Assembly (NCBI RefSeq): GCF_042660085.1
Contig: NZ_JBHSTI010000008.1
Span: 450,001 to 482,000, forward strand
DNA: 32,000 nt
Reading direction: 5' to 3'
From: Longivirga aurantiaca
Lineage (GTDB): Bacteria; Actinomycetota; Actinomycetes; S36-B12; CAIYMF01
Part shown: positions 7,947-25,843 of the stretch, piece after piece
Layout of the letters: every line of letters starts with the position of its first letter
Numbering within the stretch: position 1 is the first letter of the stretch
Notes under the pieces: model-generated
What the model saw: the letters and a program-made list of their open reading frames with translations, nothing else
The model's database searches: none
Told to the model about the DNA's origin: nothing
Position numbers and translations under genes: made by a program

Positions 7947-8537
7947 TCAGACGTCGTCGTCGTCGAGTCCCATGCCGGCCCCCATGCCGCCCCCCATGCC
8001 GGCCATGCCTGCGCCCATGCCGCCCATGCCGCCCATGCCCGCGCGGCCGCCGGCGACGCGGTCCTTGAGCTTCGCGAGGGCGTCGGGGGACAGCGCCCGC
8101 ACGGTGTCGGCCGTGCCCGCCGAGGCGCGCACCAGGGCGGTGTCGCCGACCACCAGGTCGGTGCCGCTCACGGTGCTGCGGTCACGGCGTACGACGGTGG
8201 AGTCGCCGATGGCGTAGGTGGCCGTGAAGCCGTCCGAGCTCTTCACGGTGACCGAGGTGGCGGATGCGGCTGTGATCTCGCCGCGCTGCACGTCGACCAC
8301 CTTCGTGCCGGTGTCGGTCTTCACGGTGAGGGACCCGTGCAGGACGTCGCGCATCATGCCGCGGCGCGCCTTCCCGGCGGCCGTGTCCGCCGTCGCCGCG
8401 GCCGCAGCCGTGCCCGACGGGACGGCTGCGGGGCCGAACGAGCCGGCGGATGCGACGCCGCTGAGGACGGTGGCGCCGATCGCCCCGGCGGTCACCCAGG
8501 CGACGGCGGTGGCGGCCTTGCGGGCGGTGGTGCTCAT
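7947..8537 (-). CDS. secreted protein with beta-rich core and C-terminal Gly/Met repeat tail
   Basis: Signal-peptide-like N-terminus (MSTTARKAATAVAWVTAGAIGATVLSGVASA). AGGAG RBS. C-terminus is GMGGMGGMGAGMAGMGGGMGAGMGLDDDDV. Confidence 0.7.
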   Translation of the reverse strand: MSTTARKAATAVAWVTAGAIGATVLSGVASAGSFGPAAVPSGTAAAAATADTAAGKARRGMMRDVLHGSLTVKTDTGTKVVDVQRGEITAASATSVTVKSSDGFTATYAIGDSTVVRRDRSTVSGTDLVVGDTALVRASAGTADTVRALSPDALAKLKDRVAGGRAGMGGMGGMGAGMAGMGGGMGAGMGLDDDDV

Positions 8538-11773: not shown

Positions 11774-11903
11774 CACGTGGGAGCGGCCCGGCCGGGCCGC
11801 GATTTCGCGCTGCGACGCAGAGGAAGGCACCATGGTGTCCACGACCGCTGGGGGCAGGGCCCACCTCGCCCTCGCGGACCGGTCGAGCGCGGAGGTGGTC
11901 GCC

Positions 11904-12512
11904 ATGAGCGAGCCGACGGAGCAGACGGGGGCCGACCCCGTCGTGGGTCCGGACTGGGACGCGCCCTCCTGGGACGACGTCGTCCGCGACCACGGTGCCC
12001 GCGTCTACCGCCTCGCCTACCGCCTGACCGGCAACCAGCACGACGCCGAGGACCTGACGCAGGAGGTCTTCGTCCGCGTCTTCCGCTCGCTCTCGCAGTA
12101 CACGCCGGGCAGCTTCGAGGGCTGGCTGCACCGCATCACCACCAACCTGTTCCTCGACCAGATGCGCCGCAAGGCCCGCATCCGCTTCGACGGCCTGCCC
12201 GACGACGCCGCCGACCGCATCCCCTCGCGCGAGATCGGCCCGCAGCAGCTGCTCGACGACCGCGCGTACGACGCCGACGTGCAGGACGCGCTCGACTCGC
12301 TCCACCCCGACTTCCGGGTCGCGGTCGTGCTCTGCGACGTCGAGGGCATGACGTACGAGGAGATCTCGGACCTGCTCGGCATCAAGCTGGGCACCGTCCG
12401 GTCGCGCATCCACCGCGGTCGCGCGGCGCTGCGGCAGGCGCTGGCCCACCGGACCCCCAAGACCGCCGTCCGCTTCCCGCTCGGCCACGACGCCGCGGGG
12501 GGCACCGCATGA
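11904..12512 (+). CDS. sigE: ECF RNA polymerase sigma factor SigE
   Basis: Sigma-2 ([18 protein letters not shown]) and sigma-4 ([29 protein letters not shown]) regions are present. GGAGG lies 8 nt before ATG 11904. An alternative upstream ATG is at 11832. Confidence 0.9.
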
Positions 12513-13124: not shown

Positions 13125-14279
13125 GTGAGCGCGCGCCTCCTCGTCGTCACCGGGGCAGCCGGTGTGGCGGTCCTCGCCCTGTGCTCGCTCGCCGCCCTCG
13201 GCGGGAGCCCCTCGCAGGCGTCGAGCGACGGGTGGGCCGGGTGGACCGGCGAGGTCGACACCGCGGCGGTGTCCGACAAGGACGCGATGACCCCCGACGA
13301 CGCGGTCGCGGTGCGGCTGCTCGCCCGTTCGGCCGAGGCGGCGGGCTCGGTCGGCTACTCCGGACGGGTGACGGCCGAGGACAGCTCCGGCCTCGTCACC
13401 ACCACGCTCGTGCACGCCCCTGGCTTGGGCACCGTCACCACGGTGGTGTCGGACTCCCTGCGGGAGCCGGTCTTCGCGCCCGATGGCCGCAGCGGCTCGT
13501 TCGCCGACGAGGGCCGCCAGCTCGACCTGCTGCGCATCAACTACCGGGTGCTGCGCCAGGCCGACCTCGACACAGGCATCGCCGGCCGCCCGGCCGAGGC
13601 CGTGGTCGCCGTCGGGTCCGACGGCGCGACGGCCGCCCGCTACTGGCTGGACGCCGAGACCGGGCTGCTGCTGCGCAAGGAGCTCGTCGACGCGGACGGA
13701 GCCGTGCGCGTGCGGTCCGGGTTCGACCAGCTGAGCCTCACGTTCGACCCGGCCGTGGTGGCCAAGGCCGAGACGTCGCAGGTCGCCGACGCCTGGGGCG
13801 CCGAGCTCGACGAGGCCGGGCTCCGTGCCGCACGGCTCGCCGGGTGCGACTGCCCCGACTCCCTGCCCGGGGGCCTCACCCTCGTGGAGACCAGGCGTGC
13901 GCCCGCCGGGGCGGTGGGCGCCGTCCCCGTGGTCCACCAGCTCTTCTCCGACGGGCTCGTGAGCGCGTCGCTGTTCACCCTGCAGGGCTCGCTCACCGAG
14001 GCCGACACCGAGGGCCTCCGCGCCCGCGGCTTCGCGCTCACCGACCTCGACGGGCTGTCGGCCTGGGTGCGCGGCGGCAAGTCCTCGGCGTCGAGCGCGA
14101 CGGTCGTGTGGGAGTGCGACGACGACGTGCTCACCCTCGTCGCCGACGACGCCCTGCAGCCGCTCGCGGTCGCCCAGGCCGTGCTCTCGGCCCTGCCCCC
14201 GACGAGGCCGACCGAGGACGGCTCGTTCCTGGGCCGTGTCGCCCGCGGCTGGGACCGCCTGACCGGGGGAGGGGCGTGA
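13125..14279 (+). CDS. exported MucB/RseB-like sigma-E regulatory protein
   Basis: Signal peptide present. By-eye alignment to E. coli RseB blocks: LLARSAEAAGSVGYSGRV ~ LLQQMNLASQSLNYELSF; YWLDAETGLLLRKELVDADGAV ~ VWMDTESKLPMRVDLLDRDGET; LPGGLTLVE...LFSDGLVSASLF ~ LPQGFSEVS...LYSDGLFSFSV. Confidence 0.7.
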   Translation: MSARLLVVTGAAGVAVLALCSLAALGGSPSQASSDGWAGWTGEVDTAAVSDKDAMTPDDAVAVRLLARSAEAAGSVGYSGRVTAEDSSGLVTTTLVHAPGLGTVTTVVSDSLREPVFAPDGRSGSFADEGRQLDLLRINYRVLRQADLDTGIAGRPAEAVVAVGSDGATAARYWLDAETGLLLRKELVDADGAVRVRSGFDQLSLTFDPAVVAKAETSQVADAWGAELDEAGLRAARLAGCDCPDSLPGGLTLVETRRAPAGAVGAVPVVHQLFSDGLVSASLFTLQGSLTEADTEGLRARGFALTDLDGLSAWVRGGKSSASSATVVWECDDDVLTLVADDALQPLAVAQAVLSALPPTRPTEDGSFLGRVARGWDRLTGGGA

Positions 14280-14938
14280 GGCGCGGGGCTGTCATCGCGG
14301 CCGTCGTGGTCCTCGTGCTGCTGGGCGTCGCGGTCGGGGCGGACCGCGCGGCCGTGGCGGTGGCCGAGCGCACGGTGACCGAGCGCGTCGCCGCAGAGCT
14401 GCCCGGCGCGACCGACGTGACCACGTCGATCGAGGGCTTCCCGGCCCTGACCCAGGTGCTGCGCGGGTCGCTCGACCATGTGACCGTCACGGCGGCCGAC
14501 GTGCCCACCGAGCAGGGCACCCTCGACTCCGTCGTGGTCGACCTGTACGGCGTGGCCACGTCGTCGCCGCGCACGGCGTCCTCGGTCGAGGCCACCGCGG
14601 TCGTGCCGCTGGCCGTCCTCGCCGAGCAGCTCGGCGACAGCTGGGAGCTGGCGGTCGAGGGCGACGCGCTGACCGCGTCGTTCACCGGCGCGGTGTCGGC
14701 CACGGCGACGGTGGTGCCCGTGGTGACCGACGGCCGCATCACGCTGGACCTGCAGAAGTTCTCGCTCCTCGGGCTGGAGGTGTCGGGTGACAACGTCCCC
14801 GACTTCGTCACCCAGGCGCTCAACGACATGGTCGGCTCGGTCGGAGACCTGCCGTTCGGCCTGACGCCCACCGAGGTCACCGTGATCCCGACGGGCGTGC
14901 AGGTGCGGGCCGCGGGCACCGCCGTAGCGCTGGAGTGA
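14276..14938 (+). CDS. DUF2993 (LmeA-like, phospholipid-binding family) membrane-anchored protein
   Basis: GTGA overlap with the upstream stop. N-terminal TM, then the pattern IEGFPALTQVLRGSLDHVTVTAADV typical of DUF2993. Confidence 0.65.
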   Translation: MRRGAVIAAVVVLVLLGVAVGADRAAVAVAERTVTERVAAELPGATDVTTSIEGFPALTQVLRGSLDHVTVTAADVPTEQGTLDSVVVDLYGVATSSPRTASSVEATAVVPLAVLAEQLGDSWELAVEGDALTASFTGAVSATATVVPVVTDGRITLDLQKFSLLGLEVSGDNVPDFVTQALNDMVGSVGDLPFGLTPTEVTVIPTGVQVRAAGTAVALE

Positions 14939-15082: not shown

Positions 15083-16492
15083 ATGGATGCACGCCCCGAC
15101 GAGCGCGCAGGAGAACCCATGAGCGACGAACGACCCCAGGACATCCCCGAGCCCGACGGCGGCTCGGTCGCCGTCCACGACGGCCAGCCCGACGCGCACG
15201 ACACCGTGGTCGTCCCGGTGCTCGACGCCGACACGCAGGACACCACCGTGCTCGCGGCACAGGACACCACCGTGTTCGCGGCGCCCGACCCGGCGGCCCG
15301 CGTCGACGGCCCGCCCGGGTACGCCGCCGGCACCCCCGTGCCCGGCTTCGAGCCGCCCCTCCTCGGTGCGCCCGAGGCCTGGGACGCGCCGCCGGCCGCC
15401 CCCGTCAAGCAGCGCACCGGCGGTGCCGGCCGCATCGTCGCGATCGCCGTCGCCTCGGGCCTGCTCGCCGGCGCCGTCGGTGGCGTGGGCGCGTACACGA
15501 TCGCCGAGAACCGCTCCGGCGGATCGCTGACGTCGTCGGGCGCGACCATCCCGCAGACCGACGCCGATCTCTCCGCGCGGCCCAGCGGGTCGATCGCGGC
15601 GGTCGCGGCCGCGGTCCTCCCGACGGTCGTGCAGATCGAGGAGCGCAACGGCACCGGAGGCGGCACCGGCTCGGGCTTCATCATCCGCGCCGACGGGTAC
15701 ATCCTCACCAACAACCACGTGGTCGAGGGCGCTGCCGACGGCGGCACGCTGACCGTGCGCTTCCAGGACGGCACCACCGTTCCGGCGAAGATCGTCGGCC
15801 GCGACACGTCGTACGACCTTGCCGTCATCAAGGTGGACAGGACCGGCCTGCCGGTGGCCACGCTCGGCAACTCCGACGGCATCGTGGTCGGCGACTCGAC
15901 CATCGCGGTCGGCTCGCCCCTCGGGCTCGAGGGCACCGTCACCGCCGGCATCGTCAGCGCGCTCAACCGTCCCGTGACGGCGGGCGGCTCGGGCGAGAAC
16001 TCGTTCATCAACGCGATCCAGACCGACGCCGCGATCAACCCCGGCAACTCGGGTGGCCCGCTGCTCGACGCCGAGGGCAAGGTCATCGGCGTCAACTCGG
16101 CCATCGCGTCGCTGTCGGACGGCAGCGGCCAGGCGGGCTCGATCGGGCTCGGCTTCGCCATCCCGATCAACCAGGCCCAGCGCGTGGCCGAGGAGATCAT
16201 CTCGGACGGAAGCTCGAGCCACCCGATCATCGGCGTGCAGGTCGACAGCCGGTACACCGGAGAGGGCGCCCAGGTCTCGGAGGTCACCGCCGGTGGTCCC
16301 GCCGAGGCTGCCGGTGTCACGAGCGGCGACATCATCGTCGACGTCAACGGCCGCGCGGTCTCGGACTCGACCGAGCTCATCGTCGCGATCCGCACCTACG
16401 CGCCGGGCGAGACCATCACCCTCGGCATCAAGGACGGCGACAGCGTCCGGACCGTCGAGGTCACGCTCGGATCGGACAGCTCGACCGGCTGA
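15083..16492 (+). CDS. htrA: membrane-anchored HtrA/DegP-family serine protease with C-terminal PDZ domain
   Basis: S1C catalytic motifs (TNNHVV, SYDLAVIK, GNSGGPL). TM segment (IVAIAVASGLLAGAVGGVGAY). PDZ-like C-terminus. Confidence 0.9.
   Translation: MDARPDERAGEPMSDERPQDIPEPDGGSVAVHDGQPDAHDTVVVPVLDADTQDTTVLAAQDTTVFAAPDPAARVDGPPGYAAGTPVPGFEPPLLGAPEAWDAPPAAPVKQRTGGAGRIVAIAVASGLLAGAVGGVGAYTIAENRSGGSLTSSGATIPQTDADLSARPSGSIAAVAAAVLPTVVQIEERNGTGGGTGSGFIIRADGYILTNNHVVEGAADGGTLTVRFQDGTTVPAKIVGRDTSYDLAVIKVDRTGLPVATLGNSDGIVVGDSTIAVGSPLGLEGTVTAGIVSALNRPVTAGGSGENSFINAIQTDAAINPGNSGGPLLDAEGKVIGVNSAIASLSDGSGQAGSIGLGFAIPINQAQRVAEEIISDGSSSHPIIGVQVDSRYTGEGAQVSEVTAGGPAEAAGVTSGDIIVDVNGRAVSDSTELIVAIRTYAPGETITLGIKDGDSVRTVEVTLGSDSSTG
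15236..15283 (+). repeat. in-frame tandem duplication (2 x 24 nt) in the cytoplasmic N-terminal tail of HtrA
   Basis: CAGGACACCACCGTGCTCGCGGCA / CAGGACACCACCGTGTTCGCGGCG match at 22/24 positions. They encode QDTTVLAA / QDTTVFAA. Confidence 0.8.
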
Positions 16493-16576: not shown

Positions 16577-16945
16577 GTGTTCTTCGACATCGGGACGGGC
16601 GAGTTCCTGTTCATCGCGCTCGTCGCCGTGCTCATCCTCGGGCCTGACAAGCTGCCGAAGGCCATCGCCAGCATGGTGCAGTGGGCGCGCGTGCTGCGCA
16701 CCCAGGCGATGAACGCCCGGCGCGAGATCGTGGCCGCGGCCGATCTCGATCCCACCATCACCGACGACCTCAAGCAGTCGGTGAAGGACCTGGCCGACCT
16801 GCACCCGCGCCGGCTCGCGGCCTCGATCCTCAGCGACCCCGAGCCCGAGCCGAGCGGCCCCGCAGGTCCTGCCGCACCGGCCCGCGGCGCGACGGGCAGC
16901 TCCACCGCCGCACCTGCTGCAGCGTTCGACCCCGACGCCACCTGA
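16577..16945 (+). CDS. tatB: Sec-independent (Tat) translocase subunit TatB
   Basis: MFFDIGTGEFLFIALVAVLILGPDKLPKAI is the canonical TatA/B N-terminus. An amphipathic helix and a Pro/Ala-rich tail follow. GTG start. Confidence 0.85.
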   Translation: MFFDIGTGEFLFIALVAVLILGPDKLPKAIASMVQWARVLRTQAMNARREIVAAADLDPTITDDLKQSVKDLADLHPRRLAASILSDPEPEPSGPAGPAAPARGATGSSTAAPAAAFDPDAT

Positions 16946-17182
16946 GCGTCGACGCCGACCGGCACGAGCGGGTGGTGATCACTGCTCCGTCCGGGCCATG
17001 TGCGTCCCGTCAGCGGTGTGCCACGGTGCCGAGCAGGACGTCAGAGCCGACGGGGGTCGGCCCGTCCCGCTGGACGTATCAGGGAGCCGGTCCCGACCTC
17101 CTCCGGGTGAGGCCGCGCGCAGCGCGCGTCCCCGGCTGCCCGACGCGCAGTGCGTCCGGAGCCACGACCCGAGGGGGTTCGG

Positions 17183-18463
17183 ATGACCGACTACTGGCGC
17201 GAGGCCCGCGATGCGCGCACCGACGACCCGAACCGTCCCGGTTTCCGCATCTCGCACGTGGAGACAGACGACGGCGGGTTCCTGTTCGTACCCGACGAGC
17301 TGCTGGTGAGCGGAGCGGCCGCTGACCTTCTGCCGGTCCTGCAGGGTCCCGAGTACATCGAGCTCACCGACACGTCGCCGGGCCTGTCCGCCACCACCGT
17401 GCGGTGGTTCTCGTACGGTGGCCCGGTCCCCTTGCTGGACCACGTCGCGGCTCTTCAGGCCGATGCCCGCGGCGCGGCCCCGGCAGCCGGAGTGGATCCG
17501 GACGCCTGCCGGGTCACCCCGCACTACGTCATGTCGGGCGAGCCGTGGATCTACAAAGGTGGCCCCTTCGACCAGGTCCGTCCGGCCGAGCCGTGGTCGT
17601 CCGGACCCCTGCCGGTGCCTCTCTCCGCCCCGCATGTGGCCGTGCTCGACACCGGCATCCCCATCGAGACGCCGGGCGGGGGCATGGCTCGCCTCCGCGT
17701 GGACCCGGAGGAGGACGTGGATCGCCTGTGGCCGCCCGGGCAGGACGGGCCGTCGTTCGGCGCGGAGGCAGGGCACGGCGCGTTCATCGCCGGACTCGTC
17801 AACCGGATGACCAGCAGTCAGGCCGGCATCGTCGCGCTCCGCGTGCTGGACACCGACGGCTACGGGACCGAAGTCATGGTGGTCGACGGGTTGCACCGTC
17901 TCCGTGCCGCACATCCCACGATCGGTGTCATCAACCTCTCGCTCGGCACCCGGACCGATGGCCTCGCGCCGATCGGCCTCACGGAGGCGATCGAGGCGTG
18001 GCCCACCTCCACCGTCTTCGTGGCAGCCGCGGGCAACTGCGGTGTCACCGACCTGCCGTACTGGCCCGCTGCCATCGGTCGGGTCGTGGCGGTGGCGGCC
18101 ATCGGGTGGAACGGCGGCTCACCCGAGCCGGCGCCGTTCAGCAACACCGGTGACTGGGTCGACCTCTGCACCGACGGCGTGAGCGTCCTCAGCATCCACT
18201 CCTTCGGGCGGGTGCCGATCGACAGCGCTTCCTTCGACCTGATCGAGGGGTGGGTGCGCTGGAGCGGCACGTCGTTCGCCGCTCCCATCGTGGCCGCCGA
18301 GATCGCGCGCCGCATGGTCGAGCGGAACATAGGGGCGGGCGCCGCCCTGCGGAGCCTCCTGGCCGACCTGCCTGACGCCTCGGCAGTGTCGCCCGCTCTG
18401 CGCGGATTCGGTCGTCTCTACGACCCCAGGCAGTCGGTGGGGATCGACCCGACGTCGCCGTGA
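17183..18463 (+). CDS. S8 (subtilisin-family) serine peptidase, no signal peptide, ~150-aa unassigned N-terminal region
   Basis: Catalytic motifs VAVLDTGI (D156), GHGAFIAG (H198), AAAGNCG (N285) and SGTSFAAP (S364). GAGGGGG RBS before ATG 17183. The hydrophilic N-terminus is MTDYWREARDARTDDPNRPG. Confidence 0.85.
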   Translation: MTDYWREARDARTDDPNRPGFRISHVETDDGGFLFVPDELLVSGAAADLLPVLQGPEYIELTDTSPGLSATTVRWFSYGGPVPLLDHVAALQADARGAAPAAGVDPDACRVTPHYVMSGEPWIYKGGPFDQVRPAEPWSSGPLPVPLSAPHVAVLDTGIPIETPGGGMARLRVDPEEDVDRLWPPGQDGPSFGAEAGHGAFIAGLVNRMTSSQAGIVALRVLDTDGYGTEVMVVDGLHRLRAAHPTIGVINLSLGTRTDGLAPIGLTEAIEAWPTSTVFVAAAGNCGVTDLPYWPAAIGRVVAVAAIGWNGGSPEPAPFSNTGDWVDLCTDGVSVLSIHSFGRVPIDSASFDLIEGWVRWSGTSFAAPIVAAEIARRMVERNIGAGAALRSLLADLPDASAVSPALRGFGRLYDPRQSVGIDPTSP

Positions 18464-18483
18464 GTCCTGCACCCGGGACGTGC

Positions 18484-21129
18484 CTAGGCGCCCACTGCGA
18501 CGAATGTGCCCGCGACCACCCCGGCGGCGGGCTCCTCGGCACCCAGTGATCCCCTCACGCGCTGCAGGGCTTCGTCCGGGGCGTGCCCCTGCGCCAGTTC
18601 CCGGTGCAGGCTCGTCATCACCAGGGCGGTGAGCCCGTCGGGCACGGCTACAGGAGAGGCCACGACCGTCCGGGCTCCGACGCCGAGCGCGATCGCGGCG
18701 AGCCCGAGCACCTCCTCGCCGGCGACCGCGGCCCCGGCGGCGGCGCTGCACGCCGAGAGCACCACCACCGACGGCGCGCGCACCCAGGATGCGATGTCGT
18801 AGCCGCAGAGCGGACCGTCCGCAAGCGTCAGGGACGAGAAGAGCGGGTTGTCCCGGCGCAGAAGCCCGTGGGCCGCCAGGTGGAGGACGTCGACCTCCCG
18901 GGCGGCACGGCTGACGGCCGCGGTCGTGGCGTCCGCCGCGAGCGTCGCCGTCGCCTGCCGGTGGAGGCGGCTGACGGAAGTGCACTCGGCCTCCGCCGCG
19001 GGGAGGCCCGGACCGGCCAGTGCGGCCACCTTCCTGATCCGTTGCGGACCCACGTTCCGGGCGCGGTGCCACGAGGTCGCCGACGGCGCGATGGTCAGGT
19101 CAGCGCCGGCGATCGATGGCGCGATGGACCACGGGACGCCACCCAACGCGGAACCTGGGCAGATGGTGACCTTTCTGGCGCCTGCCACGGCTGCGAGCGG
19201 GGCGAGGATGAGCGAGTCCAGGCGTCGGACCAGGCGATGCAGCTCGACCGCCTGATCGAGCGCGGGCCGTGACGGCGACGCCCGCACCACGCGCCTGAGG
19301 GCGAAGGCGATCGACCGCTCGAGCCCGAGGACTTCGGCTGCTGCGCCCAGCCTGTGCGCCCCCGTCCCGTTCCGCGTGGTGGTGGTCGCGTGGATCTCCC
19401 CTTTCCAGCTGAAGAACTGCACGAAGACACCATCGCCGACGGCGGAGCGGGCCACCTCGGCGCCGATGACGTCGTGGTCTCCGTCCGCCGCTGCACGGCG
19501 GCGGGTCAGGCGGCGGACCTCACGTTCCGCAGCACGCACCGGGGAGGGGGACAGGCGGTCCCCGGCCGCTCGGGCCTCGGCCTCTTCGCTCTTGGCCCAG
19601 CGCCATCGCGTGAGTGCTGCGGCGACCTCGGGGTCGGGAGCCGGGCGCGCGGCGGGGTGGCGCAGCACGGCAGACCGGCCTCGTTCCACCCAGTCGAAGG
19701 CCTGCTCGGCGCAGCCCGCGTCGAGGGCCCGGCCGAGGCCCAGCTCCACGATGCGCCCGGACCGCGCGGCTGCGCCAGCGACGAGATCGACCGACCCCAG
19801 CGCAGCGTGAGCGTCGTCAGCCAGCGACCAGGCGCGGAGCAGCTGCCGCTGGGCTCTGCCGGTGTCGCCTGCCCAGCCGGCCCGCAGCGAGCGTGCGAGT
19901 GCCACCGTCGAGCGCCGTTCCCAGTCGCCGGCCGCCGGGCGACGTGACTCGACAGGCTCGAGCAGCTGCAGGGCGTCGGCGGGAGAGCGTGCGTGCATCG
20001 CCATCGCCGCGGACACGCGGAGATCGTCGGACTCGCGCGGCCAGTGGTTCTCCTCGAGCATCGCCACCAGTCGTTCGATCGACCGGGTCGTCGGCGCGGA
20101 ACGGGATCGCCGCAGCTGCGCCGACATCGCCACGTACTCGGCCATGGCCGTCCACTCGGGCCGGCCCTGGCGCCGTACCAGCCGGCGGGCCTCCTGGGCG
20201 GCGGCGACGACCGCGTCCAGGTCGGGCTCGCGATCCGACAGCAGGGCCGACGCGAGACTCAGCCAGCTCTCTGCCTCCAAGGCATTCCAGCCTCGGGACT
20301 GCAGCAGCGCTATGGCGCGTCGAGCGTCGGCGACGGCCTCGGCAGACAGACCCGCACGAGTGAGCACCTCGGCGCGCCCGGCCCAGTACTCGGGGCGGTC
20401 GAGATCCCCCCACTCCTCTGCGGAGGCGTCCAGGTTCCGGAGCGCCTGCGGTACGTCGCCTGCCATGCCGTACAGGTATCCGATGTTGTAGAGCACGTCG
20501 GCCGCATCGTTCCTCCGCCCTTCGGCGAGGAAGATCTCGCGGGCTCCTGTGAAGTCTGCGACTGCCCGGGCCGTCTCGCCGCGGGTCGCGAGCAGGATGC
20601 CCCGGTTGTTGAGCAGGCGGCTCTCCCACACCGTGTCGCGCGCACGGCGCACGGCCGGCAATGCCACGGCGTACTCGGCCAGCGCGTCGTCACCGTGGCC
20701 GGACCGCTGCAGCGACATGGCCCGGATGATCCGCAGCCGGTACGTCGTCTCCCCTCGAGAGTCCCGCAGCGCTCGCGTCGTGAGCGCCACGGCCTGGCCC
20801 ATCCGGCCGCGCTCCATGAGGACGTACGCGAGGCTCATCCGTGCTTCAGCCCCGACGTCCGGCCGCTCGTGCCGGTCGGCGATGCGCACCGCTCGGCGCA
20901 TCCGGCCCTCTGCCGTCTCGATCTCGCTCAGCTCCCGGAGCGCCAGCCCGGCCGCGCGATGGGCGGTGACGACGGCGCGGATTCCTTCTGCCGCAAGCGG
21001 TCTCGGGATCGCGGCGACGACGGCGTCTGCCACGGCGAGCGCAGCACGCGGGTCGCGGCCTACCTCGTCCAAGGCGTGCTCGGCCCGGGCGACGACGTCA
21101 TCGACGGCGTCGACGGCGCCCTCGGTCAT
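18484..21129 (-). CDS. TPR-repeat / CHAT-domain (caspase-fold) protease, 881 aa
   Basis: The N-terminal ~500 aa are helical TPR-like repeats (e.g. NNRGILLATRGETARAVADFTGAREIF, LYNIGYLYGMAGDVPQALRNL). The C-terminal CHAT dyad motifs are VLHLAAHG (His754, 18868-18870) and VVVLSACSA (Cys794, 18748-18750). Confidence 0.85.
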   Translation of the reverse strand: MTEGAVDAVDDVVARAEHALDEVGRDPRAALAVADAVVAAIPRPLAAEGIRAVVTAHRAAGLALRELSEIETAEGRMRRAVRIADRHERPDVGAEARMSLAYVLMERGRMGQAVALTTRALRDSRGETTYRLRIIRAMSLQRSGHGDDALAEYAVALPAVRRARDTVWESRLLNNRGILLATRGETARAVADFTGAREIFLAEGRRNDAADVLYNIGYLYGMAGDVPQALRNLDASAEEWGDLDRPEYWAGRAEVLTRAGLSAEAVADARRAIALLQSRGWNALEAESWLSLASALLSDREPDLDAVVAAAQEARRLVRRQGRPEWTAMAEYVAMSAQLRRSRSAPTTRSIERLVAMLEENHWPRESDDLRVSAAMAMHARSPADALQLLEPVESRRPAAGDWERRSTVALARSLRAGWAGDTGRAQRQLLRAWSLADDAHAALGSVDLVAGAAARSGRIVELGLGRALDAGCAEQAFDWVERGRSAVLRHPAARPAPDPEVAAALTRWRWAKSEEAEARAAGDRLSPSPVRAAEREVRRLTRRRAAADGDHDVIGAEVARSAVGDGVFVQFFSWKGEIHATTTTRNGTGAHRLGAAAEVLGLERSIAFALRRVVRASPSRPALDQAVELHRLVRRLDSLILAPLAAVAGARKVTICPGSALGGVPWSIAPSIAGADLTIAPSATSWHRARNVGPQRIRKVAALAGPGLPAAEAECTSVSRLHRQATATLAADATTAAVSRAAREVDVLHLAAHGLLRRDNPLFSSLTLADGPLCGYDIASWVRAPSVVVLSACSAAAGAAVAGEEVLGLAAIALGVGARTVVASPVAVPDGLTALVMTSLHRELAQGHAPDEALQRVRGSLGAEEPAAGVVAGTFVAVGA

Positions 21130-21135
21130 CGCGAT

Positions 21136-21591
21136 CTAGACCGTGATCCAAGCGGTCGTGACGCGACCGCCGTCAGGCCTGGTCAGCTCGAGCCGGAGCG
21201 GACCGCCGGTCGGCAGCTCGAGGTCGAAGTGCCCGTCCTCGAGAACGACGGTGAGGCGGTGACCAGTCAGGACGACGACGACCTCGCCGGCTGCACCGAC
21301 CGCGACGCCGTGGATCCGGACGCGACCGGTCACGGGGTCGGTGTCGACGTCGAGCTCGATCGTGATGTCGCCGCAGACGAAGGAGAGCATGCGCACGTCC
21401 GCGACCAGCGCCCGCGTGAGCACCGCTGGCTCGTCGACCCACGAGTCGGCCACGAGCTCGGCCAGCTCGGAGTCGAGGCTTCGCAAGGCGAACAGGGACT
21501 TCGCGTCGGCGATCACATGCTCGGGAACGGCGTCGGCCTCCGACGTGACGTCGCGCAGCCGGGACTCGAAGGCGTCCTCGGACGTGGTCAT
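21136..21591 (-). CDS. 151-aa soluble orphan protein, translationally coupled between the ECF sigma and TPR-CHAT genes
   Basis: Its ATG overlaps the sigma stop (ATGA at 21588-21591). Its stop is 6 nt before the CHAT ATG. GC3-rich. Acidic helical N-terminal half, beta-rich C-terminal half. No TM and no zinc motif. Confidence 0.7.
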   Translation of the reverse strand: MTTSEDAFESRLRDVTSEADAVPEHVIADAKSLFALRSLDSELAELVADSWVDEPAVLTRALVADVRMLSFVCGDITIELDVDTDPVTGRVRIHGVAVGAAGEVVVVLTGHRLTVVLEDGHFDLELPTGGPLRLELTRPDGGRVTTAWITV

Positions 21592-22214
21592 GACTCACCC
21601 CCGGTCGACAGTGCTGCGTCGGTCACATCGACCACGTCGTCGGGGTCGAGCGCGCCGCTCTGCAGGGCCAGTGTGCGCAGCTTGGCGAGGCAGCGTGCGC
21701 GAGTCGGCCCGATCGAGCCGATCGGCATGTCGAGTGCATCGGCGATCTCGGCGTACGCCGGCGGTGGGTCCGCGACGAGGACGCGCAGCAACCGGCGGCA
21801 CGGATCGGGGAGCTCGTCGAACACCTGCCAGAGCGCGGCATCGCGCTCGGCCACGAGCATCGCCGACTCGACGGGTGCGCGCTGATCGGGCACCCGGTCC
21901 AGCCACTCGTCGGCCGGCACCGGTGGTTCGCGGTGGGAACGCTTGAGCACGAGGAGGCACTCGCGTCGCGCCACGACCGCGAGCCAGCCTCCGAGTCGCT
22001 CGGGCTCCTGGATCCGGTCGAGGTTCTCCAGCAGCCGCAGCCAGGTGGTCTGGACGATGTCGGCGCAGTCGGTCGCGGAGAGGCGGTGAGTCCGTGCCGT
22101 GGCCCACAGCAGGCCGGTGAACCGGTCGACGAGGGAGTCCCAGGCGACGGAGTCGCCCGCCGCCGCTGCCGCGAGCAGCGGCGCGACGGGTTCGTCGTAG
22201 GCGCTGGAGACCAT
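21588..22214 (-). CDS. ECF-type sigma-70 family RNA polymerase sigma factor
   Basis: Sigma-2 (DCADIVQTTWLRLLENLDRIQEPERLGGWLAVVARREC) and sigma-4 (AYAEIADALDMPIGSIGPTRARCLAKLR) regions are present. GGGAGG RBS before ATG 22214. The track ORF's extra 31 N-terminal codons are rejected. Confidence 0.85.
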   Translation of the reverse strand: MVSSAYDEPVAPLLAAAAAGDSVAWDSLVDRFTGLLWATARTHRLSATDCADIVQTTWLRLLENLDRIQEPERLGGWLAVVARRECLLVLKRSHREPPVPADEWLDRVPDQRAPVESAMLVAERDAALWQVFDELPDPCRRLLRVLVADPPPAYAEIADALDMPIGSIGPTRARCLAKLRTLALQSGALDPDDVVDVTDAALSTGGES

Positions 22215-22274
22215 GGCCCCTCCCTGATCGGAGTATCGCGCTCGAACTGCGTGCAGGCCAGGGGATTCACGTCG

Positions 22275-22309
22275 AGATGGGCCGGGACGCATCTCGTCCC
22301 GGCCCATCT
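22275..22309 (-). terminator. strong hairpin separating the upstream membrane-protein gene from the sigma operon
   Basis: AGATGGGCCGGGACG-CATCT-CGTCCCGGCCCATCT, a perfect 15-bp stem, 45 nt past the 22354 stop. Confidence 0.55.
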
Positions 22310-22353
22310 GCCGACCCCCGAGTGGATCAGTCGAGGGCCACCTGTTGCGGTGA

Positions 22354-22941
22354 TCAGCCTGTGGCGTGGGCGCCGAAGTAGTGGCGCTCGATGGCCTCGG
22401 CCCAGGAGGGGTCGTCGTACGGCGGGACGAAGCGGTCGTTCCACACCGTGCGCTCGCCGCCCGAGGGCTGGGCCTGGTAGCCGTTCGACCGCGGCACCTG
22501 CGAGTCCAGCACGCTGGAGTAGCCGGTCGTGCCGGTGAACGCGTACGAGCGGTGGAGTCCGCCGACCTGCTGGCCGATGACGCTGGTCGGCACGACGGCA
22601 GCCGCAGCGACGGTCCCCGCGTAGTTGCCCTGCGTCTTGGCGAGCCGGTCGAGCCGCGCCTCGGACTTCAGCCGCGCGGCGATGCCGGCGCGCTCCGCGA
22701 CGTCCAGGCCGCCGGACCTGGACCGGGCGAGCGCGGCGCGCTGCTGCGCCTCGAGCGCGTCGGGGCCGCCGGCCCGCGGCGCGGACGACACCGCAGGGGT
22801 GCTCGTCGTCGCCGTGAACGACAACCGGGGGACGACGACTGCGGACACTGCGACCAGCGTGACGACGCCGATGCCGACGAGCAGCGGGGTCTTGCCGAGC
22901 GACGACGGCGTGGCGGTCGGGGTGGCGGTGATCGTGGACAT
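22354..22941 (-). CDS. hypothetical membrane-anchored protein (N-terminal TM, ~150-aa extracytoplasmic region)
   Basis: ATG 22941 is preceded by GAGAGGAA. TM segment LLVGIGVVTLVAVSAVVV. I recognise no family. Confidence 0.6.
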   Translation of the reverse strand: MSTITATPTATPSSLGKTPLLVGIGVVTLVAVSAVVVPRLSFTATTSTPAVSSAPRAGGPDALEAQQRAALARSRSGGLDVAERAGIAARLKSEARLDRLAKTQGNYAGTVAAAAVVPTSVIGQQVGGLHRSYAFTGTTGYSSVLDSQVPRSNGYQAQPSGGERTVWNDRFVPPYDDPSWAEAIERHYFGAHATG

Positions 22942-23008
22942 GGTGGTTCCTCTCGGGGGTTGTACGCGGTGCGGGGTGAGGTCCTGCCGGAGCGGGACCG
23001 GGGGCCGA

Positions 23009-23176
23009 TCAGGCGAAGGCGGGCCGAGCCCGGCGCAGGAGCTCGAGCCAGCCGACGAGGCGCACGGGGGGCCGCCACGCCGGCAGCTGGCCGGGCTCGG
23101 TGGACAGGCGGGCCAGAAGGGCATCCGGGCGAGCCTCGGGCCGGGGAAGGGGGTTCGGGCCGGCTGTGCTGCTCAT
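23009..23176 (-). CDS. possible 55-aa ORF of unknown function
   Basis: ATG 23176 lies about 6 nt after AGAGGAG. About 90% of codon third positions are G/C by hand count. Translation: MSSTAGPNPLPRPEARPDALLARLSTEPGQLPAWRPPVRLVGWLELLRRARPAFA. No homologue recognised. Confidence 0.3.
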   Translation of the reverse strand: MSSTAGPNPLPRPEARPDALLARLSTEPGQLPAWRPPVRLVGWLELLRRARPAFA

Positions 23177-23337
23177 GGCTGCTCCTCTGGTCTGCACCGG
23201 CTCGGTGGAGCCGGACACCTGGGAAGAGCGGCAGACGGGCGTCCTGATACACCCCACGGCGATCGGCACGGGGCAGTGGGTGGCGCCGCATAGCCTGGGC
23301 GGCACCTTGACTGGGCGAGGAGGCTCGATGGCTGACG

Positions 23338-23678
23338 CTGACGACGTGCGCCGCATCGCGCTCGGCCTCGCAGGTGTCGAGGAGATCGACAGCGCAGGGT
23401 TCGACTTCCGCGTGGGAGGCAAGGGCTTCGTGTGGTCCTACCCCGATCGCGAGGGCGGGCGCCGCGTGATCCGCACCGACGTCGCCGTCCTCTACGTCGG
23501 CGACGAGGCCGAGAAGCAGGCGCTGCTGCTCGGGGAGCCGGGCATCTTCTTCACCGCCCCGGGGTACGACGGCTGGGCAGTCGTGATGTGCCGGCTCGAG
23601 AAGGTCGGCGTACGTCGTCTGCGCGAGCTCGTCACCGATGCGTGGCGGATGCGGGCGCCGGAGCTCGACGCGCGCTAG
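23338..23678 (+). CDS. MmcQ/YjbR-family protein
   Basis: GAGGAGG RBS. The pattern DDVRRIALGLAGVEE ... FRVGGKGF ... FFTAPGYDGWAVVMCRLEKV ... LRELVTDAWRMRAP matches the YjbR fold family. Confidence 0.7.
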
Positions 23679-24703: not shown

Positions 24704-25843
24704 TCAGAGCCTGCCCGCAGGGGTGATTCCGAGCGACATCCCGGCGAGACCGCGGGCGCGCGTGCCGAGGCGGGTCGCGACCTCGGTGAGGACGGTCGAG
24801 GCCGGGGCGTCGGGGTCGGACGCGACGAGCGGCGTGCCGTTGTCGCCGCCCTCGCGCAGGCGCACGTCGAACGGCACCCGTCCGAGCAGCGGCACGTCGG
24901 TGCCGAGCTCACGCGTGAGGGTCTCGGACACCATCTGCCCGCCGCCGGAGCCGAAGAGGTCCATCGGCTCACCGCAGTGCGGGCAGGGGAAGGACGACAT
25001 GTTCTCGACGACGCCGGCGAGGCGCTGCTTGGTCTGCTGCGCGAGCATGCCCGCGCGGATCGCCACCTCGGCCGCCGCGGTCTGCGGCGTCGTCACGACG
25101 ACGAGCTCGGCCTGGGGCAGCAGCTGCGCGGTGGAGATGGCGACGTCGCCGGTGCCCGGGGGCAGGTCGAGCAGCAGGACGTCGAGGTCGCCCCACCACA
25201 CGTCGGCGAGGAACTGCTGCAGCGCGCGGTGCAGCATCGGGCCGCGGAACGCGACGGGTTGCGAGACGCCACCGGGCTTGAACGCCAGCATCGAGATCAC
25301 GCGGACGCCGTACGCCTGCGGCGGCATGATCATGCCCTCGACCATCGTCGGCGGCTCGGTCGCGCCGAGCAGGCGCGGGATCGAGTGGCCGTAGATGTCG
25401 GCGTCGACGAGGCCGACGGACAGGCCCTGCATCGCCATCGCGACCGCCAGGTTGGCGGTGACCGACGACTTGCCGACGCCGCCCTTGCCCGAGGCGACGG
25501 CGTACATGCGGGTGAGGTTGCCGGGCTTGGTGAACACGATCTCGCGCTCGTCATGGCCGACGAGCGAGGCCCGCAGCTCCTTGCGCTGCTCCTCGTTCAT
25601 CACGTCGAGCTCGACCTCGACGGCGCTGACCCCGGGGACGGCGCCGACGGCCTCGACCACGCGCGAGGTGATGGTGTCGCGCATCGGGCAGCCGGAGACG
25701 GTGAGCCAGACGGCCACACGCGCGACGCCGTCGACGACCTCGCGCGACTTCACCATCTTGAGATCGGTGATCGGGCGGCGGATCTCGGGGTCCTCGACCG
25801 TCGCGAGGGCAGCATCGATCAGGTCGAGCAACGTCTGGGACAT
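24704..25843 (-). CDS. mrp: Mrp/ApbC/NBP35-family Fe-S cluster carrier ATPase
   Basis: N-terminal DUF59-like domain (VEDPEIRRPITDLKMV). Deviant Walker A SGKGGVGKSS. CPHC cluster-binding motif. Confidence 0.9.
   Translation of the reverse strand: MSQTLLDLIDAALATVEDPEIRRPITDLKMVKSREVVDGVARVAVWLTVSGCPMRDTITSRVVEAVGAVPGVSAVEVELDVMNEEQRKELRASLVGHDEREIVFTKPGNLTRMYAVASGKGGVGKSSVTANLAVAMAMQGLSVGLVDADIYGHSIPRLLGATEPPTMVEGMIMPPQAYGVRVISMLAFKPGGVSQPVAFRGPMLHRALQQFLADVWWGDLDVLLLDLPPGTGDVAISTAQLLPQAELVVVTTPQTAAAEVAIRAGMLAQQTKQRLAGVVENMSSFPCPHCGEPMDLFGSGGGQMVSETLTRELGTDVPLLGRVPFDVRLREGGDNGTPLVASDPDAPASTVLTEVATRLGTRARGLAGMSLGITPAGRL

Follow-up and report, generated by a model that had tools for sequence, protein, structure and literature searches.

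A conserved ECF54-type module of sigma factor, small partner protein, TPR-CHAT protease and subtilase in Longivirga aurantiaca and other Actinomycetota

A 32-kb stretch of the genome of Longivirga aurantiaca (Actinomycetota), hereafter the window, carries four adjacent genes: those of a sigma factor of the extracytoplasmic function (ECF) type, of a small partner protein, of a protease made of tetratricopeptide repeats and a CHAT domain (TPR-CHAT), and of an S8 subtilase. On comparative evidence these genes form a conserved functional module, and not a chance neighbourhood, and the assignment of the locus to the ECF54-type regulatory modules of Actinomycetota is well supported. In window positions, used throughout, the four genes are the following.

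17183-18463, plus strand: S8 subtilase, 426 aa (open reading frame (ORF) list and raw sequence)
18484-21129, minus strand: TPR-CHAT protease, 881 aa (ORF list and raw sequence)
21136-21591, minus strand: small partner protein, 151 aa, soluble (ORF list and raw sequence)
21588-22214, minus strand: ECF sigma factor, 208 aa, in an ECF54-like gene context

The stop of the sigma gene overlaps the start of the small gene (gagtcATGAcc), the TPR-CHAT gene begins 6 nt after the stop of the small gene (TAGatcgcgATG), and 20 nt separate the stop codons of the S8 and TPR-CHAT genes. The first-pass annotation of this DNA had given the same coordinates, ATGA overlap, gap and stop spacing, and all of them match the ORF list or the raw sequence. 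A GTG at 17150 is a possible alternative start for the S8 gene; the ATG at 17183 is preferred because the orthologues align from it. For the sigma gene, a 239-aa ORF starting at the ATG 22307 is unlikely: the orthologous sigmas have 207-208 aa, GGGAGG precedes the start at 22214, and a hairpin at 22275-22309, described below, covers that upstream ATG.

CHAT, TPR, Peptidase_S8 and Sigma70_r2, the domains that the first-pass annotation had read by eye, were all matched in Pfam. The 881-aa protein matches CHAT at 2.1e-34, plus TPR_1, TPR_2 and TPR_12; zf-HC2 is not matched in Pfam, the helical repeats running from residue 2 onward, and no membrane-type hydrophobic segment was seen on reading the sequence by eye only. 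Its AlphaFold2 (AF2) model—predicted local distance difference test (pLDDT) 86, predicted template modelling score (pTM) 0.86—consists of some 26 helices over residues 2-549 and, behind them, a CHAT domain of caspase-like alpha/beta build (568-880), in which the loop after Cys794 is disordered. The catalytic dyad His754/Cys794 lies where it had been annotated and is invariant in 32/32 orthologues. The whole protein shows 100% identity to one annotated in Longivirga aurantiaca, of the order Sporichthyales. The best Foldseek matches of the model are separase (5e-13), the Csx29 subunit of Craspase (3e-12) and, at 5.5e-12, the TPR-CHAT part of the transmembrane anti-sigma DdvA. With the Csx29 chain 8eey_B (E=3e-12) the template modelling (TM) score is 0.36-0.48, and separase and DdvA match equally well; a sequence search against the CHAT proteins of the PDB, including Csx29, separase and DdvA, gave no match. 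As modelled, the protein is thus of the separase/Craspase/DdvA type of architecture, and a specific kinship with Csx29 is not supported by sequence.

The S8 protein matches Peptidase_S8 in Pfam (1.5e-17) over residues 150-393, while its first ~150 aa match no family; its nearest solved structures are thermitase and subtilisin. The catalytic residues D156, H198, N285 and S364 stand at the positions first assigned to them and are invariant in 35/35 orthologues. The N-terminus, read by eye only, is free of any hydrophobic stretch; hence no signal peptide is seen, as the first-pass annotation had it, and the subtilase is probably cytoplasmic.

The sigma factor matches Sigma70_r2 (Pfam, 8.6e-10) and TIGR02937 (NCBIfam, 2.9e-16), the latter covering sigma2 and sigma4; together these matches span residues 55-212 of the 239-aa ORF and leave no regulatory extension. 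It is a divergent ECF sigma, whose best solved relatives are SigE-type (E ~5e-4). In a 20-sequence alignment two cysteines of the sigma4 region, C139 (PxxCRRLLRVL) and C175 (TRxRCL), are invariant and C86 nearly so. They could make up a site for redox chemistry or metal binding, possibly connected with the 4Fe-4S neighbour published for ECF54.

A review (PMC8999054), which refers to Huang et al. 2015 (J Bacteriol 197:2517) and Casas-Pastor et al. 2021, describes ECF54 as a group without anti-sigma, neighboured by carboxypeptidase-regulatory-like, subtilase and CHAT proteins, for which proteolytic control is proposed: the proteases would degrade the sigma itself. In Casas-Pastor et al. 2021 (PMC7826278), ECF54 is listed among the groups without anti-sigma or clear regulator, and a 4Fe-4S neighbour is noted. 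The window locus compares gene for gene: an actinobacterial minimal sigma, no recognisable anti-sigma, and carboxypeptidase-regulatory, subtilase and CHAT neighbours. The class is here deduced from gene context and taxonomy, not from a group hidden Markov model (HMM). The published 4Fe-4S neighbour, on the other hand, is not clearly present at the window locus: the only candidate, Mrp/ApbC at 24704-25843, matches Fer4_NifH below threshold (3e-4, 20.7 bits for a cutoff of 25), and no 4Fe-4S gene stands beside the module in Kribbella, Saccharothrix or Microbacterium.

The first-pass annotation could not tell if this architecture had been described. It has, as the ECF54 neighbourhood with proteolysis proposed (PMC8999054, PMC7826278): it is known from comparative genomics, was catalogued by ECF sigma specialists in 2015 and 2021, and will be no surprise to them. 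ECF54 is nevertheless an ECF group without demonstrated regulator or mechanism, its proteolytic control being a guess of the literature, and our literature search found no experimental study of any member. In the parts of the literature that were accessible, no account was found of the architecture of the small protein, of a promoter motif or of two extra upstream genes. These are what the present analysis adds, together with the fold of the TPR-CHAT protein.

The conservation of the module was surveyed by scanning genomes with the small protein as seed; this gave 53 loci across Actinomycetota, scored by phmmer with the four window proteins; as the scan pattern was the most conserved motif of the 151-aa family, its recall is partial. 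Among the 33 well-flanked loci, with at least 6 kb on each side, 28 have the complete set of four, and seven different orders or orientations of the genes occur among them. The co-occurrence that the first-pass annotation had proposed to survey is thus found in many actinobacterial orders and arrangements. The taxa are Sporichthyales/Nanopelagicales, Propionibacteriales, Pseudonocardiales, Micromonosporales, Geodermatophilales, Micrococcales, Acidimicrobiia and Thermoleophilia. The most constant element is the sigma gene directly 5' of the small gene on the same strand (32/33), often with overlapping codons. Sigma/anti-sigma pairs are usually laid out in this way, the sigma gene being followed, and often overlapped, by a small gene.

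The order of the other genes varies. The arrangement seen most often has sigma, then small, followed by CHAT on the other strand with S8 divergent from CHAT; that of the window is restricted to its own lineage. The metagenome-assembled genomes (MAGs) labelled Nanopelagicales have the module at the same chromosomal site, between tatB and mrp. The Kribbella module lies in another neighbourhood with CHAT inverted; Saccharothrix and Petropleomorpha have small, sigma and S8 genes on one strand and CHAT divergent; and Microbacterium has sigma, small, S8 and CHAT in one co-directional run, its 556-aa gene being the S8 protease (8e-26). Some loci—L027, L038, L039 (Jiangella) and L036—show the sigma-small pair with no CHAT or S8 gene within 8 kb. 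The protease genes may there lie in another part of the genome, or the pair may be able to function on its own.

The 151-aa protein itself has no match in Pfam or NCBIfam, including any anti-sigma family. Among 28 relatives, however, 8 match PF13620 (CarboxypepD_reg, best E 1.7e-5), which identifies the protein as the "carboxypeptidase" element of the published ECF54 neighbourhood; a match to RsgI_N in 1/28 relatives (E=0.13) is not significant. The AF2 model, built with 28 sequences, predicts two helices (4-19 and 24-48, pLDDT 50-68), a disordered linker (49-61, pLDDT <50) and a C-terminal CarboxypepD_reg-like beta-sandwich (65-151, pLDDT >90). The Foldseek matches of this model are all beta-sandwiches of a generic kind (CrdA, SOD1), with no E below 1e-3, and the family profile found no solved chain at E<0.2, although Csx30 is in the PDB. 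The word-indexed search gave 87 relatives. With clustering at 50% identity, the profile search reached 5086 clusters, of which 2172 have E<=1e-10; the family is therefore large. "Hypothetical protein" is its sole label in the sources giving any name.

A motif, DxELAxLxxDS, is conserved in the family. A first alignment, where ELAxLVADS seemed invariant, was biased by word-based searching. In 146 representatives collected without a word index, the end of helix 2 holds the best conserved residues (D40, L43, A44, L46, D49, S50), while V47 and A48 vary; "LVAD" was accordingly dropped as a caspase-type cleavage site. The pattern corresponds to one helix face plus a DS cap, and so speaks more for a surface that binds a protein than for a linear cleavage motif.

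Bipartite words were enumerated 5' of 49 sigma genes and normalised against 1100 control windows, a necessary step as a first enumeration of exact k-mer pairs gave only GC-rich noise. The top pair is GTATC, then CTC 15-18 nt later. GTATC alone is modestly enriched relative to permutations of the same composition; the significance lies in the bipartite form. The aligned sites read (A/C)T-GTATCAG(G/C)-N14-CTC(T/C)T, a geometry which is that of an ECF promoter. The pattern GTATC-N17-CTC has exactly two matches in the window, for 0.04-0.08 expected, and both point into the module.

17076-17102, plus strand: promoter-like bipartite motif GTATCAGG-N14-CTCCT, 81-107 nt 5' of the S8 start codon
23224-23250, minus strand: second copy, GTATCAGG-N14-CTCTT, at the head of an operon composed of the 55-aa ORF, the membrane protein, sigma, the 151-aa protein and TPR-CHAT

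The copy 5' of S8 recurs at the equivalent place in the orthologous loci L005, L009 and L011, and that heading the sigma operon in L005 and L007-L014. In distant taxa the motif is found 5' of sigma, 5' of S8, or between the sigma and small genes. Over 56 loci (1.54 Mb, both strands), 20 of the 80 matches (p=1.4e-14) fall in the 2.6% of the sequence that lies upstream of sigma, CHAT or S8 by no more than 300 nt and on the strand of the gene. From this we infer that GTATC-N17-CTC may be the target promoter of the sigma itself, though another regulator could bind it. The presence of the motif at both the sigma operon and S8 therefore suggests that the module is positively autoregulated, with S8 in the regulon.

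Two peculiar placements of the motif were also observed. In Kribbella (L002 9297-9337, likewise L017, L020 and L024) two GTATC-N-CTC motifs stand back to back, ~32 nt apart, 5' of sigma, the minus-strand copy having no obvious gene ahead. In two unclassified actinobacterial MAGs a well-conserved copy (CGCAAAGTTCGTGTATCAGGACGG...CCTC) lies 3' of S8 (L029 7581 and L030 5918, both plus strand), which may point to one more gene of the regulon in addition to the four.

How could these elements work together? Starting from what the data support directly—the conservation of the genes, the intact catalytic sites, the protein folds, the motif and its placement—we propose a protease-operated switch, a reading that we give, for the mechanism as a whole, an even chance of being right. 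The sigma would be made together with its 151-aa partner from translationally coupled genes, and the helices of the partner, bearing DxELAxLxxDS, would hold it inactive, the beta-sandwich serving as a docking handle. Upon an unspecified cue the TPR-CHAT protease, possibly with S8, would cut the disordered linker of the soluble inhibitor and free the sigma. The latter would then transcribe from GTATC-N17-CTC promoters its own operon—a positive feedback—and the S8 gene, and the induced S8 would clear the fragments or reset the switch.

This scheme has precedents for each of its steps, and separase, Csx29 and DdvA each act, or are proposed to act, on a bound regulatory partner. In type III-E Craspase, Csx29 cleaves the sigma inhibitor Csx30 (PMC10028731). 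The Craspase locus (Cas7-11, Csx29, Csx30, Csx31 and CASP-sigma), like the window, has the gene of a cytoplasmic TPR-CHAT protease beside an ECF-like sigma; to its small sigma-binding inhibitor and its sigma-dependent autoregulatory promoters (PMC10028731) would correspond the small partner and the candidate motif. By contrast, the window has no CRISPR array and no Cas7-11 among the identified neighbours, the related loci being alike in this, and its activating signal cannot be a target RNA; an S8 protease takes the place of Csx31, to which nothing in the locus is similar. Of the Craspase-like logic put forward in the first-pass annotation, the shared TPR-CHAT architecture is seen by Foldseek; in sequence, no match links the TPR-CHAT protein to Csx29 or the small protein to Csx30. 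The relation to Craspase is at best analogous.

DdvA of Myxococcus xanthus, for which a CHAT-mediated cleavage of its own anti-sigma linker has been proposed (PMC11506125), resembles the window in that a TPR-CHAT is functionally tied to an ECF sigma, DdvS, and in fold (8rot_A, E=5.5e-12). It differs in topology: the TPR-CHAT of DdvA is periplasmic and fused via a membrane helix to a zinc anti-sigma, whereas that of the window is separate and apparently cytoplasmic, and the candidate sigma partner is encoded by its own gene, without zinc anti-sigma domain or membrane helix. A precedent for the pairing of CHAT and S8 is offered by the type III-B SAVED-CHAT, which activates a second protease, PCaspase, beside a sigma factor (bioRxiv 10.1101/2023.06.23.546230), a system (SAVED-CHAT/PCaspase/PCc-sigma/PCi) that also has two proteases, a sigma and a small protein. 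However SAVED-CHAT and CalpL/CalpT/CalpS are triggered by cyclic oligoadenylates through SAVED domains and reside in loci of CRISPR or of cyclic-oligonucleotide-based antiphage signalling (CBASS), while the window shows no SAVED domain, cyclase or cas gene, and its second protease is a subtilase, neither a caspase nor a Lon protease.

Several points weigh against the switch. The proteases are not obligatory neighbours of the sigma-small pair, since L027, L038 and L039 have the pair and neither CHAT nor S8 within 8 kb. The 151-aa protein resembles no anti-sigma family and no solved structure that we could recognise, and the two helices given the inhibitory role are modelled with low confidence (pLDDT 50-68). 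We only infer that this protein binds the sigma and is cleaved. The proposal of the literature for ECF54 (PMC8999054) is another one, and the membership of ECF54 follows from gene context, not from a group HMM. The motif is attributed to this sigma from its position and geometry, and its presence 5' of S8 would agree equally well with S8 as a mere output.

That other proposal, in which TPR-CHAT and/or S8 degrade the sigma itself and keep its level low, the 151-aa protein acting as adaptor or protector, is stated explicitly for ECF54 in the review (PMC8999054) and agrees with the failure of Pfam and NCBIfam to detect an anti-sigma domain in the small protein, as well as with two proteases of intact active site and without visible signal peptide. 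We consider it unlikely. The universal, often translationally coupled pairing of sigma and small genes fits better a stoichiometric binding partner, as does the helix-linker-domain build of the small protein, and in those TPR-CHAT/sigma systems that have been characterised, the established or proposed substrate is the inhibitor of the sigma and not the sigma.

Alternatively CHAT and S8 would be outputs: the sigma, set by the small protein and another signal, would start a cytoplasmic proteolysis serving stress response, development or turnover. The location of GTATC-N17-CTC 5' of S8 in many taxa, and 5' of CHAT-containing operons, favors this possibility, and Casas-Pastor et al. 2021 (PMC7826278) warn that the conserved neighbours of ECFs may be targets, not regulators. 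But to be a target does not exclude a feedback regulation; besides, proteases built of TPR and CHAT are typically specific and gated by a partner, not bulk degraders, and the window has CHAT in one transcription unit with the sigma and small genes, 6 nt from the latter. That the proteases are outputs and not regulators seems to us improbable, to the same degree as the degradation of the sigma.

The remaining explanation is defence, and the surroundings of the module bear on it. A search for CRISPR-like arrays in the window was empty, and no recognisable cas gene is present among the identified neighbours, some ORFs of the first 11 kb being without identification; within this limit the absence of array and cas genes reported by the first-pass annotation is borne out. 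The identified neighbours are housekeeping genes: citrate synthase, DapD, LOG, Tag, SigE, MucB/RseB-like, LmeA, HtrA and TatB, then YjbR, APH, Mrp/ApbC, T2SSE ATPase, MgtE, MFS and EamA. The tatB-mrp site is syntenic across relatives sharing 47-93% identity, and the GC content of the module is that of its surroundings. PADLOC matched no system, nor anything for the sigma and the small protein; its only matches are weak and below threshold: subtilase (7.9e-9, 33 bits), IetS (1.7e-5, 21 bits) and BovA (3e-3, 14 bits). No NCBIfam defence model scored above threshold.

A Cas-independent antiphage or abortive-infection module, whose TPR sensor would detect infection and whose proteases would trigger a defensive or lethal response—one of the outputs suggested in the first-pass annotation—thus has for it the sub-threshold PADLOC matches and the analogy with Craspase, CalpL/T/S, SAVED-CHAT/PCaspase and DdvA/DdvS, which couple proteases and ECF-like sigmas to defence, but it is very improbable for a module which is recognised by no PADLOC system or NCBIfam model, has no cas, CRISPR or other defence gene in sight among its identified neighbours, and sits, with matching GC, in a conserved syntenic site unlike those of mobile defence islands.

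Returning to the switch, a broader formulation would make the module a free-standing, Cas-independent counterpart of Craspase and DdvA, where TPR-CHAT, acting with S8 as a cascade or a feedback loop, cleaves a new class of soluble anti-sigma (>5000 clusters) and releases an autoregulated ECF sigma. This formulation we regard as tentative, and doubtful in its full extent. If the switch is right, soluble anti-sigmas would gain a new type in the 151-aa protein, and sigmas would be gated by TPR-CHAT proteases in ordinary chromosomal signalling outside CRISPR and defence, with bearing on the evolution of Craspase and DdvA. In the broader formulation, the caspase-like gating of a sigma would be an ancient and widespread signalling device of actinobacteria, not a CRISPR accessory. 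Handles for experiment are given by the catalytic residues and by the candidates for promoter motif, binding helix and cleavable linker, and the module has cultured carriers in Longivirga, Kribbella, Saccharothrix, Micromonospora and Microbacterium.

In the Longivirga lineage, the operon reaches two genes further upstream than the coordinates originally described, with a hairpin between them and sigma.

22275-22309, minus strand: perfect 15-bp hairpin, between the membrane-protein gene and sigma
22354-22941, minus strand: single-pass membrane protein, ~195 aa (orthologue alignment)
23009-23176, minus strand: conserved 55-aa ORF with the motif PxWRPPxRLxGxLE (orthologue alignment)

The membrane protein shares 51% and 35% identity with its orthologues of L005 and L003; the 55-aa ORF, the first gene of this lineage-specific operon, shares 53% and 45% with called genes in the same two loci. 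Neither has a match in Pfam. Both are specific to Longivirga and the Nanopelagicales-labelled MAGs, and absent from the modules of Kribbella, Saccharothrix and Microbacterium. The hairpin (-32.8 kcal/mol, z-score -4.65) is GC-rich, has no U-tract and is kept in sequence in related loci; perhaps it acts as an attenuator, or else as a terminator without U-tract. After it comes a sigma70-like -10 element, GATACT (~22225-22230), which in relatives reads GATACT or CATAAT; consensus scans for sigma70 promoters and terminators returned nothing in 16900-23400. The hairpin and the -10 element separate the upstream genes from sigma, and together they suggest a basal promoter in addition to the inducible upstream one.

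The module lies within the sigE region that is conserved in actinobacteria: SigE (11832-12512), then a probable RseA, MucB/RseB-like (13125-14279), LmeA (14276-14938), HtrA (15083-16492) and TatB (16577-16945), Mrp following at 24704-25843. In this lineage the module fills the tatB-mrp gap, and two ECF sigma systems with their own proteases are thus side by side. A YjbR-family gene (PF04237) is found within a few kb of the module in taxa as distant as Longivirga, Microbacterium and Petropleomorpha (window 23328-23678, plus strand; L061 13709-14065; L062 10477-10815), which could be a coincidence or a loose functional link. Finally, at 7969-8051, ~9 kb from the module, the window contains a short imperfect tandem repeat with periods of 9, 12 and 21 nt and units of the type CCCATGCCG, probably a low-complexity coding repeat unrelated to the module.

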